Shown here: piece after piece, positions 48,040-57,987 of the stretch
How the letters are laid out: the number at the start of each line of letters is the position of its first letter
How positions within the stretch are numbered: position 1 is the first letter of the stretch
Origin: a phage
Sequence record: NC_101837.1
DNA: 64,000 nt
Direction: 5' to 3' (one strand)
The notes under the pieces: generated by a model
Databases searched by the model: none
What the model was told of the DNA's origin: nothing
What the model saw: the letters and a program-made list of their open reading frames with translations, nothing else
Translations under genes and position numbers: made by a program

Positions 48040-48068
48040 AAATGCCCCACCCTTTCGGGCAGGGCTAT
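48040..48068 (-). terminator. intrinsic terminator (minus strand), copy 1 of a duplicated terminator
   Basis: Minus strand CTGCCC-gaaa-GGGTGG (GAAA tetraloop, G-U wobbles) followed by GGCATTTTT; near-identical at 58761-58788. Confidence 0.55.
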
Positions 48069-48080
48069 GTTAGTTATGTG

Positions 48081-48659
48081 TTAAAAGTATTCGTATAAGT
48101 ATCCATCTGGAGCTGGAATTTTTTCATGAATGTAGTAACCAATATATATTCCGGTTTCTCTGCTACAAGAGTTGTGAGATACCCATTCTTTAAGAACGTT
48201 ACCATTCATGTCCAACCTCCTTACATTTTTGCACCGTCTACCGCTGGTGCTTCTATGTAACAGAATATCCTCTGTCTGCTTGTCTTTATTTTCTCCCCAA
48301 GTCGTTAAACGGATATTATCAAAAGAGTACCCTTTGAAATCATCTATCCTGTCACAAGAAGGCTTTTTCCTTTTGTCGTATCCGCTGGCTACCCACTGAT
48401 CATACAACTCTTTGTAACCGTTAAGGTATAGCCACTCCTTAAACTCTTTTTTGGTGTAAGTCGGAGGAGGGTGACCTCTTTGCTTGCTGTTGCACTTTTG
48501 AGCCTTGTACAACACACGTATTACACCTTTTTCTGAAGAGTCTTTAGCAAATTGGTCAGCCTCCCTGCTGGCCTTCTTGCAACACTCTTTGCACGTTGAT
48601 TTGTTACTGGTGTAGAAGTCGGAGGCCTCCTTGTCCTCTCCACAACGTTTGCATTTCAT
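48081..48659 (-). CDS. HNH-like (HNH_3/AP2-type) homing-endonuclease-like protein with N-terminal zinc ribbon; catalytic His apparently replaced by Arg
   Basis: MKCKRCG...CKEC; SCDRIDDFKGYSFDNIRLTTWGEN vs HNH_3 pattern DH.D...NN..NL.L.T..EN. Confidence 0.4.
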   Translation of the reverse strand: MKCKRCGEDKEASDFYTSNKSTCKECCKKASREADQFAKDSSEKGVIRVLYKAQKCNSKQRGHPPPTYTKKEFKEWLYLNGYKELYDQWVASGYDKRKKPSCDRIDDFKGYSFDNIRLTTWGENKDKQTEDILLHRSTSGRRCKNVRRLDMNGNVLKEWVSHNSCSRETGIYIGYYIHEKIPAPDGYLYEYF

Positions 48660-48667
48660 AACTGACC

Positions 48668-49894
48668 TCAGAAAGGGATCGAGTCATCGAACTCATACTG
48701 CGCCGGATTCTGATCCATCGGGTCATCTTCCTCGTCATTTACAGGAGGAGCGTCTACAGTGTTTTGCTGTGGAGCTGCTTCCTGTTTGGCAGCTTGAGGT
48801 TCTTGATGGTCAGTGGACCCAGCACCGTTCTTGATCCAATCGTACAACGGCTCAGCCAGATTAGTCAAGACATCTTTCGCTTCTGCAGTAATTGCCACTG
48901 CAAAATCATCAACTTTCGTTTTCTTGTCAATACGGCGACAAGCGTTCAACACCGCATTACCGACACTGGCACCTACTTCATCTTCAGTTCGGTTGGTGGC
49001 TTGAGCATACTCTTTCTTAAGCTCAATGGTGACTACGTGCAGTGTTTTAGCCACGCCCAGTGGGTCGTCTACCTTAAACCCGCGATCCAGGATGATCTGC
49101 AACGCATTGATGCTATGCCCCGTTTCCACACCGATAGGGTCGTAAGAGGATTTACGCTTGCCACCGGAGCCTTGAGTGCCGTTCTCTGCCTTAGGGGGAT
49201 AGGCTTTGAAACCACTGATAATGTTTCCGGTGTCTTTGTCAACAATGGCTGCAACACGACCACCTACCACCAGGTCTTTAAGCTGCTCATCAGTTACAAC
49301 CATAGCACCTTCGCCAATCTTGTGGTCATTAACAGTAACCACGTTGCCAACAATCTGAGTCACATCGCCATAGATGCGTAAAACGTCCTGATTGGCATTC
49401 TGCTGAGGTTTCTGCTTCTGGCCTTGTGATTGTGCACCTTGTTGCTGTTTTTGCTGCTGAGTCGCTGCTGGAGCCTCTCCTGCACCCAGCTTGACCATCT
49501 TAGCCAGTGAGCCTTTGTAATAGGTCTTACCGTTATGCTCGTTTGCCTTCAAAGGGATATTTACGATCCATCCCGGCGTTACGGTTTCCCACTTGTCATC
49601 AATTTTAACAGAGACAGAGTCTTGATGACCAGGTTTAAGCAGCTTATCACCCATGCTGATCCAGACTTCTTCACCACCTTGAAGCAGGTTATCAGAGGAA
49701 TCCAGTTCAGAAATCAGTAAAGAGATGGTGTGGCTGGACTCAATTTTCTTACCTTGCCACACAGTGGTTTTAATACCTGTTGTAGGATCAGCACCTTTGA
49801 TAGGCTTGATGCTGACGCGTTTAATCATGCCGTGAGCCAGTAAAACAGTTTCACGCGGATTCATCGGGTTAGCGAATTGTTGAATAACGCTCAT
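48668..49894 (-). CDS. putative ssDNA-binding protein with SSB-like acidic C-terminal tip
   Basis: 408 aa; Gln-rich linker (QQQKQQQGAQSQGQKQKPQQ); C-terminus EEDDPMD...EFDDSIPF resembles bacterial SSB DDDIPF tip; N-terminal fold not recognised. Confidence 0.4.
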   Translation of the reverse strand: MSVIQQFANPMNPRETVLLAHGMIKRVSIKPIKGADPTTGIKTTVWQGKKIESSHTISLLISELDSSDNLLQGGEEVWISMGDKLLKPGHQDSVSVKIDDKWETVTPGWIVNIPLKANEHNGKTYYKGSLAKMVKLGAGEAPAATQQQKQQQGAQSQGQKQKPQQNANQDVLRIYGDVTQIVGNVVTVNDHKIGEGAMVVTDEQLKDLVVGGRVAAIVDKDTGNIISGFKAYPPKAENGTQGSGGKRKSSYDPIGVETGHSINALQIILDRGFKVDDPLGVAKTLHVVTIELKKEYAQATNRTEDEVGASVGNAVLNACRRIDKKTKVDDFAVAITAEAKDVLTNLAEPLYDWIKNGAGSTDHQEPQAAKQEAAPQQNTVDAPPVNDEEDDPMDQNPAQYEFDDSIPF

Positions 49895-50259
49895 TATTTG
49901 TCTCCTTGTTCTTCGTTAGTGTTTGCCGTGTGTGCAAACCCTGCTTGAATTAATTTGTCCTGAACTTGAGCCAACAGGCCCATTGCAAAACTTGTGGTCC
50001 CAGAGAGGGCCATCAGCATATCTCGTTGTTGAGCTACCCAACCTAAGGCATAGTCCAAACGACGATATTTTTCTTCTTCACGCAGAGCCTGAAATAATTG
50101 TTCAGCCTCCGGTTGTTGTGTGAGCTCCTGAAGTCTTCCCATGAAAGAAGAAAGCACTAGCAAAAGAGACACTTGATCTTTACTTAACCCTAAGAAAAAT
50201 TCTTGAGGTTGTTCTTGCTCGTTCATCGCAACCGACGCTTGATCGTTCATTTGTTCCAT
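49894..50259 (-). CDS. hypothetical protein
   Basis: 121 aa, coupled to downstream gene. Confidence 0.5.
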   Translation of the reverse strand: MEQMNDQASVAMNEQEQPQEFFLGLSKDQVSLLLVLSSFMGRLQELTQQPEAEQLFQALREEEKYRRLDYALGWVAQQRDMLMALSGTTSFAMGLLAQVQDKLIQAGFAHTANTNEEQGDK

Positions 50260-53072: not shown

Positions 53073-55850
53073 TTAGTGACAATCACCCCAATTACGACCA
53101 CACAGGTATTCACCTGTGATCTGGAACGGGACGCCCATCATTTTAGAAGCTTGCCAGAAGCAATGCACCACCATTTCACCCACAGGGCTCCAGATAAGTT
53201 CAAGCTTTCCGTCATCGTTCAGGATAGGATCGTACACCGTGTTTCCGTCTCTGTCAACCACTTCGTTTCCGTCCTCATCCTTGCGTGCCTTTTTGTACTT
53301 ATGACCGTCGAACACATGAAGTTTGGCCTCCTGCTCTGCCTTAAATGCTTCCAGTTCTTCGATTGTGTCGAAGGTGTACACAGTCTTATACTTCGGTGTG
53401 TCAGGGACTTGAAGCTGATATTCGTCATGGTAATAGATAATACGACGAACACCTTCATCGTACCACCCACGCTTCACCATTTGATGGTGCATGAGTATCC
53501 CAACTAAGTCACACAACGATGCGCCGCCATTTTGTTGGTATGCATTAAGTAAAGAGTGTTTAGATCGGGTCCAGATAGCATGACCATCAAAAGAGTAGAT
53601 AAACTTCTTACCCGTTGCTTCCCAGAATTTCTCCAGATCTTCTTTACGCCCCTTAAGACCAGGGTTGGCATCCCAGAGTGCATCGATTACCCTTTGTCCC
53701 AACTCTGGAGAGATGTCCAGCATATCTGCAACTTTATCTTTTTGTGCCCCATACATAACCCCATACGTGATAGGTTTACCGTCGTTACGAGACACCTCTC
53801 TACCTGCTACTTTTGTATATGCCTCAGCATTGTTTTGGTGTGCGTCCCCGTTACTTACAACATCGTAATACAGGCCGTTGTCGAACTCAAAGGCACCCCA
53901 AGCCCCGATAAGCTGCTCTAAGTTGGACCCGTCAATACCGATCTCAAAGTATCCTGGAGGAACACCCCACAGACTACGCATCTCTTTACCCATAACCACT
54001 TTAGGAGATGGTTTAGGCATGTTTGCACAAATACTGTGTTTCTGTCGGGAAGTGTTTGTTAATCCAGAACTTTTAGCAGGAAGCTTATGGTCAATCTTCA
54101 AACGTGGGTGATTAAGAAGACCAGTATCAACCTTATCCTCCTTGATTGGATCAAGGACCGATCTGCGGTTTCGCAATGATAACCACAAGACGATATCTTT
54201 AGCCATCTCTCCGTTCAATTTTTCAAGATTCGGGCATAGGTGTCCAAACGTATCTTTCAGTTGCGGAGAAGTAATAAGTGCCCTAGCTTTTCTACGTATT
54301 TTCCCGAATACTTCCTTTTTAATCCTTTCGGAGTTAGGAAAGCTTCGGAACTTGTGCACGGTTGTCTGGAACTTAGCATCAGTTTTGTTCCAGAAGTTGA
54401 TAATTAGGTCACAATACTCTGACTCTAAAAGCTCGTCCATATATGCATACACTCGTGCATCAACATCTGCATCAGGTAGAGCTTTCTTCTTGCTGTCTTT
54501 AGTTACATCCTTAGTTCTCCACATTGTCGGAAGCCAACCAGCACTGATCAGGTATCGCTTAATATCGTCCTGATTGCTGATTTTCATAGGTATCTTGCAG
54601 TCAGGCATTCGCTTCTGCTGTAGATCACTTATTGCCTGATCCATTAGCTCTTTAGGTAAAGGTTGTGGTGTGGAGGTGCCCTTGATATAGCCCCTCAAGA
54701 AATCCGCCATCTTGTCAGGGTCTTTACAGCCCATCTCTTCACACCATTTTATCCCCATCTTACTGACATCTCCTGTGGAGGTAAATGCTCGCTTAGGAGG
54801 AGCTTTGAATTCTAAAGCACTCATGTCCACAGGGTAGCCAAGCTTGTCTTTTAACCATTTCCAACCATTATTGGAGATTGTCCCATCCTGGTTAAACGGC
54901 TTTTCAGGGAACTTAGGCCGCTGAGACATTGATAACTCTTTTAAAGGAAGTTGTGGTTCAACACGATCAGCGATCTCTTTCATCCACGCATCGCAGCGGT
55001 CACGTAAAGCAATAGCCCCATCTATGTCGAAATACACACCCTGTCGAGCCTGCAGCTCCATCAGGAAATGCTGCAGCATGCCTCGGCGTAATGCATTCTT
55101 CCAGGTAATCTTCTTGAATCCTTTAGGCTTCTCTTTGGCAGGGTCATACATAAAGTTCTGCATGTCAGATTTGCCGTAGAATACACCTTTTGATTCCGCT
55201 ACCAACTCTTTCCAGAGCAACTCCTGGATGATAACGTCCTCGAACACACGATCCACATATTTCCACAGCGGAAGATCGCGCCAGTCATCAATTTGAACTT
55301 TCTGGTTACCAAGGGCGTAGCCCCATGCCATAAGGCCGTGAGGACCAACAGGTTGCATTTTCTTAGTAACCGGGTTGAATACAGCGTCCGGACAACCTTT
55401 TGGTAAAGGGCGATCAGGCCACAAGATTCGGCTCATAGCCAACGTATCAAACAGGTTAACCTGGTGGTCGTTGATAGTCCCCATGCATTTAGGATCACGG
55501 AACATATCAAAATGAATACCGGATAATCTTTCCATTAGCATAAAGTCATAACTGTAGCAGTTATGGCAGTTCAAAGCTGTTGGTGACCAGTCAGAATTGC
55601 CTGTAAGCCAACCTTCCAACTCCGAAAAATCTGCTATGCGAACTTCAAAATCTTTATAAAGAGTTTTCTTTGCCAGAATGAAGTTCTTAGCCTTTTCTAT
55701 ATCCTCCTCGGAGTAGTGTGTGCGGTCATTTAGAGGAAGGAACAGCATAAAACGGTTCTTATTCAGCTCTTTAAACAGACCGCAGTGATAATAAAGATCT
55801 GGGTCTTCCAGCAAACCGGATGACTCAAAATCGAAAGACCACATACTCAT
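53073..55850 (-). CDS. family A DNA polymerase, T7 gp5-like
   Basis: 925 aa; motif B-like KPITYGVMYGAQ, motif C YYHDE, C-terminus GRNWGDCH resembling T7 gp5 terminus (recalled); AAGGAG RBS. Confidence 0.9.
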   Translation of the reverse strand: MSMWSFDFESSGLLEDPDLYYHCGLFKELNKNRFMLFLPLNDRTHYSEEDIEKAKNFILAKKTLYKDFEVRIADFSELEGWLTGNSDWSPTALNCHNCYSYDFMLMERLSGIHFDMFRDPKCMGTINDHQVNLFDTLAMSRILWPDRPLPKGCPDAVFNPVTKKMQPVGPHGLMAWGYALGNQKVQIDDWRDLPLWKYVDRVFEDVIIQELLWKELVAESKGVFYGKSDMQNFMYDPAKEKPKGFKKITWKNALRRGMLQHFLMELQARQGVYFDIDGAIALRDRCDAWMKEIADRVEPQLPLKELSMSQRPKFPEKPFNQDGTISNNGWKWLKDKLGYPVDMSALEFKAPPKRAFTSTGDVSKMGIKWCEEMGCKDPDKMADFLRGYIKGTSTPQPLPKELMDQAISDLQQKRMPDCKIPMKISNQDDIKRYLISAGWLPTMWRTKDVTKDSKKKALPDADVDARVYAYMDELLESEYCDLIINFWNKTDAKFQTTVHKFRSFPNSERIKKEVFGKIRRKARALITSPQLKDTFGHLCPNLEKLNGEMAKDIVLWLSLRNRRSVLDPIKEDKVDTGLLNHPRLKIDHKLPAKSSGLTNTSRQKHSICANMPKPSPKVVMGKEMRSLWGVPPGYFEIGIDGSNLEQLIGAWGAFEFDNGLYYDVVSNGDAHQNNAEAYTKVAGREVSRNDGKPITYGVMYGAQKDKVADMLDISPELGQRVIDALWDANPGLKGRKEDLEKFWEATGKKFIYSFDGHAIWTRSKHSLLNAYQQNGGASLCDLVGILMHHQMVKRGWYDEGVRRIIYYHDEYQLQVPDTPKYKTVYTFDTIEELEAFKAEQEAKLHVFDGHKYKKARKDEDGNEVVDRDGNTVYDPILNDDGKLELIWSPVGEMVVHCFWQASKMMGVPFQITGEYLCGRNWGDCH

Positions 55851-55908: not shown

Positions 55909-57987
55909 TTAAAAAGGCGTTTCATCATCCTCAAAACCAGGGACCGGGTCAGAGGATGGATCATCGTACTGGAGGTCTTCCTGCGTGTCAACAGGCTTAA
56001 CAGTAGGAGTTACAACCTTATCAGCCACAACCTTGCCCATAGGTGTTTCTACAACTGCATGCTCCTGATCCTCAAACATAGCCTGAGGTCTCCAAACAAC
56101 CTCCCCACCTTCTCCATCTGTAAACATTTGCATTTCTTTGTCCCAGTACCAATTACTGGCATCATGGAACTTACCTGTGTGCGGGTCCATAACCAAAGTG
56201 TCAGCAATACCTAGAGTTTTTGCTGGACGGTTTTTAAGACCTACCAGACGGACACGTCCACGAGAACGATCCACCATTTCTTCGGCCTCGACACCTATGA
56301 CTACCCAACTCAACTGTTCAAGCCCCGCCGATCCTCGCAAATTCTCTTTTCGCACAGGATACCAGAAAGGTAACGGGTTACCATCCTTGTCCTTAGGAGG
56401 CACAATCTCTGTACGTTTGAGGTGAGCGATCACCAAGATAAACACGTTAAACTGCTTACAAAACGCAGCCAGTTGAGTCATAGCCATGTCCAGTTCTTTT
56501 CGCTCATCCTTAACATTAAGCCCTGAAATTACCATGGACAGGTGATCCAGCACAATATAACGGCAATGGTACAGGCAAACCATTTGCTTAAGCTTGGTAA
56601 TCAACTCGTCCACCGGAATAGATCCGAAATGTTTGAACACTTTGATTTTTCCAGCTTTTGCCCATGATTGGTGAATCTCTGCGTGTTCTTGATCAGTTAA
56701 AAACTGGCTAGGATCTTCAACAAACTCTTTAACATCAAACCCTAACTGGTTTGCATACAAGGAGTTAATTGCTTCCTCTGGGTCCTCCTCAAGATGGATC
56801 ATACATAGACGATCATCCTCTTCATAGTCATCAGCCTTCTGGCATGTCGGGTCCATTAGGTATCTTGCAATACAATGTTCCAGTTTTTTAGCTACAGTTG
56901 TTTTACCGCCCCCTGATGGCCCTGTAAGCATTACGAGTGTCCCTTTGTGCAAGCCTTTTAGCATTTTTTGCAGTTTTGGGAACTCTGCGCTGATATCTAC
57001 CCCGTTGGAAGTCTTTTTCCGCAAAGACTCGATAGAGAAGTCTTCTAAATCCGACACAGCATCAGGCACATATTTAACAGGGTGCCGGAACATGTTGACA
57101 ATATCTTCCAGCTTTTTAGCCTTCAGCATGTCACGGATATCTTTTACCCCGTCAGGGTCATTTACTTCACCAGGGTATTCTACGTGGTAAACGTTATCAG
57201 CCATCAAAAATGCTGCGATATTGTGCGTGGCCTCAACACCTTTAATGACGTGTTTTTGCTTCTCTACCTCGTTAGCTGCATCGTTATCCATTGCCAGCAC
57301 AACTGTTCCATAGCTACGGATAAACTTCTCATTGTTTGCAAAAGTATCCACTGCGTTTGCACATCCACAGTTAATTCCAACAAAAGGCAGGCAGGGTTTT
57401 CCTGCCAGATCACCACCGTTGATAACTGCGTCGATCCCGTCCTGGACCTCTTTAGCCCACTGCTTCACCTTTGCCGGGGCTTTAGCGTTGGTGAGAATCC
57501 CTTTTACTTGTATCTGATATGCAGCCTGCCATGCTGCAATAACATCACCTTCCCCCTCACAAACGTTAATCTGCTTACGGTTGTTGGAAGATGCACACAG
57601 CTTTTGACCAAACATCTGGGAGTTGGCCTTTACGATGCCAACAACGGAGAAGTGGCCCCTTTGTTCTTTAGGAATAGTCCAGTCACGCTTTTTGAAACCG
57701 GACAGATTTCCGTAGCGGTCGTAATATGGGAAATATGTTGCAGTGACTGTCACACCGTCTTCTTGTGACAATGCTGATCGCACACCAAAATATTGTGCAG
57801 CCATCAGACCGATATTTTGTTGTGGGACAGGGACAATTTTAGTATTTTCTAAAACAGTCTCTACAGTTTCAACTTCTTTTTCATCACGATAGTCTCGTTT
57901 CACACTTCCCCCACTTTTATACTTAGTTGCTTTCGGGTTTGGCTCACCGAAACGGTTGTATGCAGATGCCATAAATTTACTTCCCAT
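55909..57987 (-). CDS. bifunctional primase-helicase (TOPRIM + DnaB-like), T7 gp4-like
   Basis: TOPRIM CEGEGD and DNDAAN; Walker A LTGPSGGGKTT; 692 aa; AAGGAG RBS. Confidence 0.85.
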   Translation of the reverse strand: MGSKFMASAYNRFGEPNPKATKYKSGGSVKRDYRDEKEVETVETVLENTKIVPVPQQNIGLMAAQYFGVRSALSQEDGVTVTATYFPYYDRYGNLSGFKKRDWTIPKEQRGHFSVVGIVKANSQMFGQKLCASSNNRKQINVCEGEGDVIAAWQAAYQIQVKGILTNAKAPAKVKQWAKEVQDGIDAVINGGDLAGKPCLPFVGINCGCANAVDTFANNEKFIRSYGTVVLAMDNDAANEVEKQKHVIKGVEATHNIAAFLMADNVYHVEYPGEVNDPDGVKDIRDMLKAKKLEDIVNMFRHPVKYVPDAVSDLEDFSIESLRKKTSNGVDISAEFPKLQKMLKGLHKGTLVMLTGPSGGGKTTVAKKLEHCIARYLMDPTCQKADDYEEDDRLCMIHLEEDPEEAINSLYANQLGFDVKEFVEDPSQFLTDQEHAEIHQSWAKAGKIKVFKHFGSIPVDELITKLKQMVCLYHCRYIVLDHLSMVISGLNVKDERKELDMAMTQLAAFCKQFNVFILVIAHLKRTEIVPPKDKDGNPLPFWYPVRKENLRGSAGLEQLSWVVIGVEAEEMVDRSRGRVRLVGLKNRPAKTLGIADTLVMDPHTGKFHDASNWYWDKEMQMFTDGEGGEVVWRPQAMFEDQEHAVVETPMGKVVADKVVTPTVKPVDTQEDLQYDDPSSDPVPGFEDDETPF

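Follow-up and report, generated by a model that had tools for sequence, protein, structure and literature searches.

The gene at positions 48668..49894 on the minus strand of a 64,000-nucleotide stretch of phage DNA (sequence record NC_101837.1; the whole stretch is called the window below) probably encodes the phage's own replicative SSB, a protein that binds single-stranded DNA. To judge from the structural model, it would belong to a non-canonical family in which an OB fold, a Gln-rich linker, an OB-like barrel and a four-helix bundle are followed by an acidic tail with an SSB-type tip. The preliminary description of this DNA had suggested that the gene may encode a phage SSB, and predicted structure, conservation, synteny and independent genetics support that suggestion. 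The core idea is already known from a 2026 preprint on the protein Bas52_0087 (bioRxiv 10.64898/2026.04.29.721553, 30 April 2026); added here are a family-wide view, negative homology tests, synteny, the finding that no other SSB is annotated, and a polymorphism between free and capped tips.

The 408-amino-acid open reading frame (ORF) described earlier at these positions is present, complete and initiated by ATG, and is read from the minus strand. The protein ends in ...NPAQYEFDDSIPF, followed by a TGA stop codon (48668-48670), and a Shine-Dalgarno sequence, AAGGAG, read from the sequence, lies 7 nucleotides before the ATG (49902..49907, minus strand). The gene is the orthologue of Bas52_0087, rv5_gp209 and bas51_0089, and its product matches phrog_4477 over the full length (E 1.2e-172, residues 1-408 against positions 1-393 of the 393-position profile). 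It is identical to Bas52_0087 of Escherichia phage RudolfGeigy (Bas52; QXV84166.1) at 404 of 408 residues, with no gaps and the same numbering, and has both D252 and Y351. In addition, the ribosome-binding site and start sequence of the window gene, AAGGAGACAAATAATGAGCGT, is that of the Bas52_0087 cloning primer (Table S1 of bioRxiv 10.64898/2026.04.29.721553). Identity, numbering and primer match thus make this a rediscovery of a recently described protein. The two proteins share length, start region, two predicted OB folds, four-helix bundle, disordered region and C-terminal tip; they differ in that Bas52_0087 ends in YSFDDDIPF instead of YEFDDSIPF, and Bas52 lacks a homing endonuclease gene after the stop codon.

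The SSB-like acidic tip claimed in the preliminary description (...EFDDSIPF) is borne out by the translation, which closes with YEFDDSIPF directly before the stop; six of these last nine residues are identical to the end of E. coli SSB, MDFDDDIPF. The tip proper, FDDSIPF (residues 402-408; 48671..48691, minus strand), delimited from the translation and from family conservation, is the counterpart of FDDDIPF, the C-terminal peptide of E. coli SSB (SSB-Ct). When the protein was compared with E. coli SSB by BLASTP only the C-terminal tail aligned. Among the 323 six-frame ORFs of at least 50 amino acids in the window, an acidic run with a PF end is found only in this ORF and in the primase/helicase. 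Homologues were collected by a word-indexed search, which gave 56, and by searching 1.84 billion representatives exhaustively with a profile, which gave 238 clusters at E <= 1e-3 and 161 at E <= 1e-10, most of them of 260-300 amino acids. All close homologues of the first set that reach the C-terminus carry residues rich in D and E and then [IV]PF, and no full-length homologue lacks the tip, even where identity falls to about 30%. E. coli SSB ends in EPPMDFDDDIPF, as do several family members, and in some the last 12 residues match. From the exhaustive search, 106 of the 147 representatives examined end in [ILVMF]P[FWYL]; in 10, a single residue or an extension comes after the tip, and the others are mostly fragments or have xPF or LDF ends. 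The sequence just before the tip varies freely, which points to selection on the tip itself. A chance resemblance on an unrelated protein, in whose favour only the shortness of the motif can be cited, is rejected by these data and can be practically dismissed: given the amino acid composition of the window, an end of the form [ILV]PF in which two of the three residues before it are acidic is expected at about 2e-5 per protein, and, more decisively, the tip persists across a family of about 240 clusters at 50% identity while the region upstream of it varies.

The architecture of the protein was modelled with AlphaFold2 on an alignment of 32 sequences, which gave a mean predicted local distance difference test score (pLDDT) of 75 and three confident domains. 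Domain 1 (residues 1-139; 49478..49894, minus strand) is all-beta with a predicted OB fold and has the conserved residues G22, H55, G82, G108, K123 and Y126; on the model, we propose it as the main single-stranded DNA (ssDNA) binding module. It is followed by a disordered, Gln-rich linker (linker 1, residues 140-169; 49388..49477, minus strand), delimited by composition and a pLDDT of 24-33. The preliminary description had placed a Gln-rich linker before the C-terminal domain; the linker is real, with 13 Gln in 30 residues, but it joins the first and second folded domains and does not directly precede the last. Its length differs even between proteins that are 98% identical (deletions in P0002 and P0005), which fits replication slippage in a low-complexity spacer tolerant of length change. 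Domain 2 (residues 170-236; 49187..49387, minus strand) is, from its predicted secondary structure, a small five-stranded beta-barrel with an OB-like strand order, its strands at residues 171-182, 185-190, 194-199, 213-219 and 224-232 and a short helix (202-205) between strands 3 and 4. The domain is named 'OB-fold-2' in the legend of Fig. S6 of the preprint (bioRxiv 10.64898/2026.04.29.721553), and it is missing from the family majority of 260-300 amino acids (P0052-P0056 and most representatives). A second disordered linker (linker 2, residues 237-250; 49145..49186, minus strand), rich in Gly, Ser and Lys and with a pLDDT below 50, leads to domain 3.

Domain 3 (residues 251-358; 48821..49144, minus strand) is predicted with a pLDDT of 82-96 as a four-helix bundle, with helices at 253-270, 278-299, 304-321 and 328-355. 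Its motifs are D252-x2-G255-x3-G259-H260-x2-N263 and G308-x3-G312-N-A-x-L316-N317-A. Across 101 distant members it is the best-conserved module, with G255, G259, H260, N263, G312 and L316 invariant, and most profile matches cover it best. The model leads us to propose that it serves as an oligomerisation or partner-binding module, and an interface for oligomerisation is predicted there in the preprint as well (bioRxiv 10.64898/2026.04.29.721553). The remainder of the protein is an acidic tail, rich in Pro and Gln and disordered (residues 359-401; 48692..48820, minus strand; assigned from composition and a pLDDT of 30-45), the model showing disorder over residues 363-402; the whole of residues 359-408 bears a net charge of -12. 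This architecture, obtained from an independent AlphaFold2 model, agrees with that given in the legend of Fig. S6 of the preprint, whose authors used Phold and AlphaFold2 for Bas52_0087 (bioRxiv 10.64898/2026.04.29.721553).

Independent genetics come from the work on DRT10 (UG17), a reverse-transcriptase defence. Two mutants of Bas52 that escape DRT10 were isolated, each with a missense substitution in Bas52_0087, D252V in one case and Y351C in the other (bioRxiv 10.64898/2026.04.29.721553). In the window, the codon of Asp252 occupies 49139..49141 and that of Tyr351 48842..48844, both on the minus strand, as located by a residue check against the preprint; the column of Asp252 is nearly invariant. 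In the model, D252 stands just before the first helix of domain 3 and Y351 in its last helix. Escape mutants together with expression in trans indicated that Bas52_0087, described there as an SSB-like protein that the phage encodes, is required for DRT10 activation: the wild-type protein supplied in trans boosts restriction, and D252V and Y351C do so poorly. Over-expression of SbcB (ExoI) weakens the defence, and competition with SbcB is the suggestion of the authors (bioRxiv 10.64898/2026.04.29.721553). That only missense escapers were recovered would fit an essential gene. According to the screen of the BASEL collection, DRT10 protects against Vequintavirinae, Stephanstirmvirinae, Queuovirinae and Markadamsvirinae (bioRxiv 10.64898/2026.04.29.721553); protection against Vequintavirinae as well as Stephanstirmvirinae, the subfamily with the short members (OB fold, helix bundle and tip), fits a sensing of the shared domain 1, domain 3 and tip.

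Tests of the OB-fold assignment, which the preliminary description had asked for, gave a divided answer: OB folds are predicted by AlphaFold2 and by the company that the model keeps in Foldseek, but no sequence-profile relation to the OB domain of E. coli SSB was detected by hhalign. In the PDB, Foldseek matches were weak (best E 0.02) and the list consisted almost entirely of OB-fold proteins, among them eIF5A, IF1, D. radiodurans SSB, RPA, the SSB of lactococcal phage p2, 4klk (DUF2815) and LEF-3. In BFVD the significant matches were uncharacterised family members, followed more weakly by SSB, DUF2815 and "DNA helix destabilizing protein" entries. Dominated as they are by OB and SSB proteins, these lists support the OB fold on the grounds of predicted structure only. 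Known domains were sought in Pfam, in NCBIfam and among PDB sequences, with the single sequence and with the 101-member profile, and none was significant; phrog_4477 was the sole significant match, and all 101 distant members match it as well.

Several observations weigh against the protein being an SSB. The evidence for the fold is a predicted model whose Foldseek E-values in the PDB are weak (at least 0.02). A Pfam SSB match was sought for the query and 101 family members and none was found, and hhalign of the family profile against residues 1-116 of E. coli SSB returned a probability of 0.2%. Matches of family members to three PHROGs annotated as SSBs and to NCBIfam PRK09010 were rejected as signs of OB homology, being confined to the last 30-50 residues; the NCBIfam SSB matches cover the last 30-45 residues only and fall far below the cut-off. 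At the level of sequence, likeness to SSB is limited to the linker and the tip. It is unusual for an SSB that the OB fold is less conserved than another module, here the helix bundle. The alleles of rV5, Bas49, Bas50 and Bas54 run on for 15 residues past the tip, so that the carboxylate of the terminal Phe is not free. Finally, Bas52_0087 expressed alone is neither toxic to E. coli nor able to trigger DRT10 (bioRxiv 10.64898/2026.04.29.721553).

It is rather unlikely that the protein is instead an ssDNA-associated accessory factor, such as a mediator of recombination, a protein that anneals strands, or an adaptor for the primosome or for helicase loading, which would leave the coating of ssDNA to the host SSB and use its SSB-like tail to take the place of SSB at particular structures. 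An OB fold combined with a helical domain does resemble RecO, and the OB fold resembles PriB, but both of these proteins bind the SSB tip and do not carry one, while a long acidic disordered linker ending in a tip is the hallmark of SSBs themselves. Moreover, the zinc-binding Cys motif of RecO has no equivalent here, where a single Cys, located in domain 3, was found in place of a zinc finger or Cys cluster, and matches to RecO and PriB were no better than those to SSB and are probably due to nothing more than the OB fold in common.

A pure decoy of the SSB tip is improbable. Such a protein would need no ssDNA binding and, by displaying the SSB-Ct peptide in many copies, would titrate or redirect ExoI/SbcB, RecQ, RecJ, PriA and UNG away from the host SSB, thereby protecting the ends of the phage DNA or crippling host repair. 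The closeness with which the tip copies E. coli SSB-Ct, up to the 12 identical final residues of some members, would suit this role, as would the genetics that tie the protein to SbcB dosage and the competition with SbcB that the authors propose (bioRxiv 10.64898/2026.04.29.721553). The reading is weakened, however, because two OB-fold domains are predicted, the gene is kept in the cluster of replisome genes across distant phages, over-expression is not toxic in uninfected E. coli, where an effective titration of the SSB interactome, which is essential, ought to be damaging, and natural alleles with a capped tip occur in viable phages. Nor is there another SSB candidate annotated in the closely related phage WalterGehring.

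For the protein as a replicative SSB we propose the following model. Domain 1, perhaps together with domain 2, would coat the ssDNA made by the T7-type primase-helicase and the polymerase of the phage, and the helix bundle of domain 3 would provide self-association or cooperative binding. The tail, with its ...DD(S/D)IPF end, would act as a recruiting handle that docks in the SSB-Ct pockets of host ExoI/SbcB, RecQ, PriA, chi and others. It may also, or alternatively, dock on the polymerase of the phage, in the manner of the acidic, Phe-terminated gp2.5 tail in T7, host and phage partners not being exclusive. Occupation of ssDNA and of SSB-Ct partners during infection would alter the processing of ssDNA in the host, and DRT10 would detect that change. 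We infer ssDNA binding, oligomerisation and every contact of the tip with a partner; for host clients of SSB-Ct such as ExoI, the genetics of the preprint give a hint.

The tip occurs in two forms, free and capped. The rV5 orthologue, gp209, has 423 amino acids, its tip being followed by APVGLQYGKSRIHAL, and the capped end reads ...FCDDIPFAPVGLQYGKSRIHAL. The extension comprises 15-16 residues with the pattern A-P-[IV]-G-L-Q-Y-G-x3-[IL]-[HY]-[AC]-[LM]. Comparison with window positions 48668-48691 (minus strand) located it in rV5 (L001:10225-10272), in Bas54, Bas50 and Bas49 (L037, L038 and L040, respectively) and at three further loci (L012, L016 and L022). It is polymorphic between Vequintaviruses that are 98% identical and is also present in relatives only about 36-42% identical. 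Seven of the ten Vequintaviruses in BASEL (Bas48, 51, 52, 55, 57, 58 and 59) have a free tip; the other three (Bas49, 50 and 54) have the capped ...FCDDIPF-APVGLQYGKSRIHAL, always together with an endonuclease of the rV5 type. DNA homology between the window and rV5 ends exactly after the Phe codon of the tip.

Mere read-through into an endonuclease cassette was rejected as a general account of the extension, which is present without an endonuclease at L016 and L022 and is conserved in the gene's own frame. Docking of the extension back onto a folded domain found no support in the AlphaFold2 model of the capped variant, a monomer model only, in which the extension stays disordered (pLDDT about 33-35). 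Canonical SSB-Ct complexes hold the alpha-carboxylate of the last Phe, and a cap should therefore change partner binding. It is a speculative thought that the extension is a natural cap that buries the carboxylate and thereby opens or closes the SSB interactome of the host to the protein, that it is swapped between near-identical phages along with the homing endonuclease, and that it could let phages tune or evade defences that sense the SSB-like protein, DRT10 being an example.

The region after the stop codon is itself variable. A free-standing homing endonuclease gene of the HNH/EndoVII-like type (48081..48659, minus strand; phrog_1035, E 3e-32) starts 8 nucleotides past the stop of the SSB-like gene. 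Its counterpart is annotated as a homing endonuclease in BASEL records and is absent in Bas52 and L008. The rV5 endonuclease is 88% identical, differs in its first approximately 30 codons, and overlaps with its 5' end the capped C-terminus. Unrelated ORFs of the CxxC type occupy the same 3' position in L014, L019 and L028, and none is found there in Bas52, L008 and others. The exact junction of the window (48660-48671) occurs in only 19 of 108 Vequintavirus records. From this comparison of sequences, the 3' end of the SSB-like gene appears to be a hot spot for homing endonucleases; the HNH/EndoVII-like gene marks this variable junction and has no part in SSB function. A terminator-like hairpin with a 9-bp stem, 7 GC pairs and a T-rich tail (48044..48065, minus strand), picked up by a consensus scan only, follows the endonuclease gene and is a possible end of the transcription unit.

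The placement of the gene in a replication module downstream of the DNA polymerase, as the preliminary description had it, agrees with what was found. The family-A (T7-type) DNA polymerase of 925 amino acids (53073..55850, minus strand; PF00476, phrog_17/8888 and conserved synteny) shares the strand of the SSB-like gene, from which some ten small ORFs separate it, and is a candidate phage partner of the acidic tail. Beyond it is a T7 gp4-like primase/helicase of 692 amino acids (55909..57987, minus strand) with an acidic ...PGFEDDETPF end (last codons near 55912-55935). The order of Toprim/DnaB primase-helicase, family-A polymerase, small genes and SSB-like gene is common to rV5, WalterGehring and Bas52 and recurs on contigs of 143 kb (metagenomic) and 45 kb and in ESCO5, a phage of the Stephanstirmvirinae. 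When an SSB annotation was sought among the 236 curated features of WalterGehring none was found, although a polymerase, a primase/helicase, a helicase, a ligase, EndoVII and exonucleases of the DnaQ-like and 5' kinds are listed. In distant relatives (L006, L007, L020, L021, L024, L029 and L031), the last residue of the primase-helicase is always Tyr or Phe. In T7, the Phe-terminated acidic tails of gp4 and gp2.5 bind the polymerase; by analogy, the Phe-ending acidic tail of the primase-helicase speaks in support of a T7-like logic.

The polymerase of the window is one uninterrupted ORF, whereas the WalterGehring annotation joins two pieces that flank a gene for a homing endonuclease, a second endonuclease gene lying just upstream, and hence endonuclease content differs from that of the closest sampled relative. 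The rV5 polymerase is also annotated as separate pieces. On the 45-kb metagenomic contig, the gene just upstream of the family member (L006:7837-8001) matches Pfam Phage_T7_Gp5_9, with primase and polymerase just before it; T7 gp5.9 is an inhibitor of RecBCD. Judged by gene content, the SSB-like family is thus not confined to myoviruses of 140 kb but also has a place in a small replication module of the T7 style.

Immediately upstream of the SSB-like gene is an acidic ORF of 121 amino acids (49894..50259, minus strand), assigned by its match to phrog_7310, a PHROG without function. Its TAA stop overlaps the ATG of the SSB-like gene in a TAATG, which suggests translational coupling. This ORF adjoins the gene in all loci examined that encode three-domain members, and the short two-domain members have another conserved gene of about 130 amino acids upstream (e.g. 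L031:6592-6984). Similarity between the 121- and the approximately 130-amino-acid genes was sought and none was detectable, and a partner gene common to the whole family was rejected, the 121-amino-acid gene being kept only among three-domain members. The two upstream genes may code for lineage-specific partner proteins.

The Escherichia phage WalterGehring (Bas51) matches the window region at 99.0% identity and about 100 other rV5-like Vequintaviruses match it at 95-98%, and tblastn found the SSB-like protein in 236 phage records. Among the matches listed, annotated records all say "hypothetical protein" and several are without annotation. The Vequintavirus record JLBYU08 names the gene product "putative single-stranded DNA-binding protein", and some GenBank records of short relatives already bear the name "single-stranded DNA-binding protein". 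Sixteen GenBank records labelled 'Campylobacter phage' (MG0656xx, host Campylobacter jejuni; hits including H13-H16, H30, H35 and H41) are 95-97% identical to E. coli rV5-like phages over the region and encode an SSB-like protein 98-99% identical; their host label looks doubtful.

The protein would be the apparent missing SSB of the rV5-like phages (Vequintavirinae), with shorter relatives in the phi92-like phages (Stephanstirmvirinae). These phages of E. coli form large groups of therapeutic relevance in which the gene is nearly always listed as "hypothetical", and the family has no Pfam model and a PHROG without function. It pairs a recruiting tip of the host type with a non-canonical layout and is a component sensed for a reverse-transcriptase defence, and the polymorphism of free and capped tips is a ready natural experiment. 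If ssDNA binding is true, the family would represent a further structural class of phage SSB and a tractable case of a virus copying the hub peptide of the host SSB.

With bacterial SSB (E. coli SSB; PF00436/TIGR00621) the protein shares an OB fold in its predicted three-dimensional structure, a disordered linker and an acidic tip at the extreme C-terminus. It differs in having no detectable homology in OB sequence, in its 408 amino acids compared with the 178 of a protein that forms homotetramers, in a second barrel and a conserved four-helix bundle that are absent from SSB, and in that some alleles of the phage family cap the tip with 15 residues. The SSB of phage HK620 is a phage-encoded protein of the bacterial type that has a DDDIPF tip and stimulates Sak4 (PMC5928155); SSBs of this kind likewise put a host-type SSB-Ct tip on a phage protein, but they are true members of PF00436, whereas the phrog_4477 family is unrecognisable as such by sequence. 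The acidic gp2.5 tail of T7, with its terminal Phe, makes contact with the T7 polymerase, where a basic patch receives the tail (PMC12339929). The likeness to that system lies in the family-A polymerase of the T7 type and the gp4-like primase-helicase alongside, in a predicted OB core and in an acidic, disordered, Phe-ending tail. On the other hand, Foldseek matches to DUF2815 proteins were weak (4klk, E 0.074; BFVD, E 0.013), no sequence or Pfam match to gp2.5 or DUF2815 was found, extra domains are present, and the IPF tip copies the SSB-Ct of the host and not the end of gp2.5.

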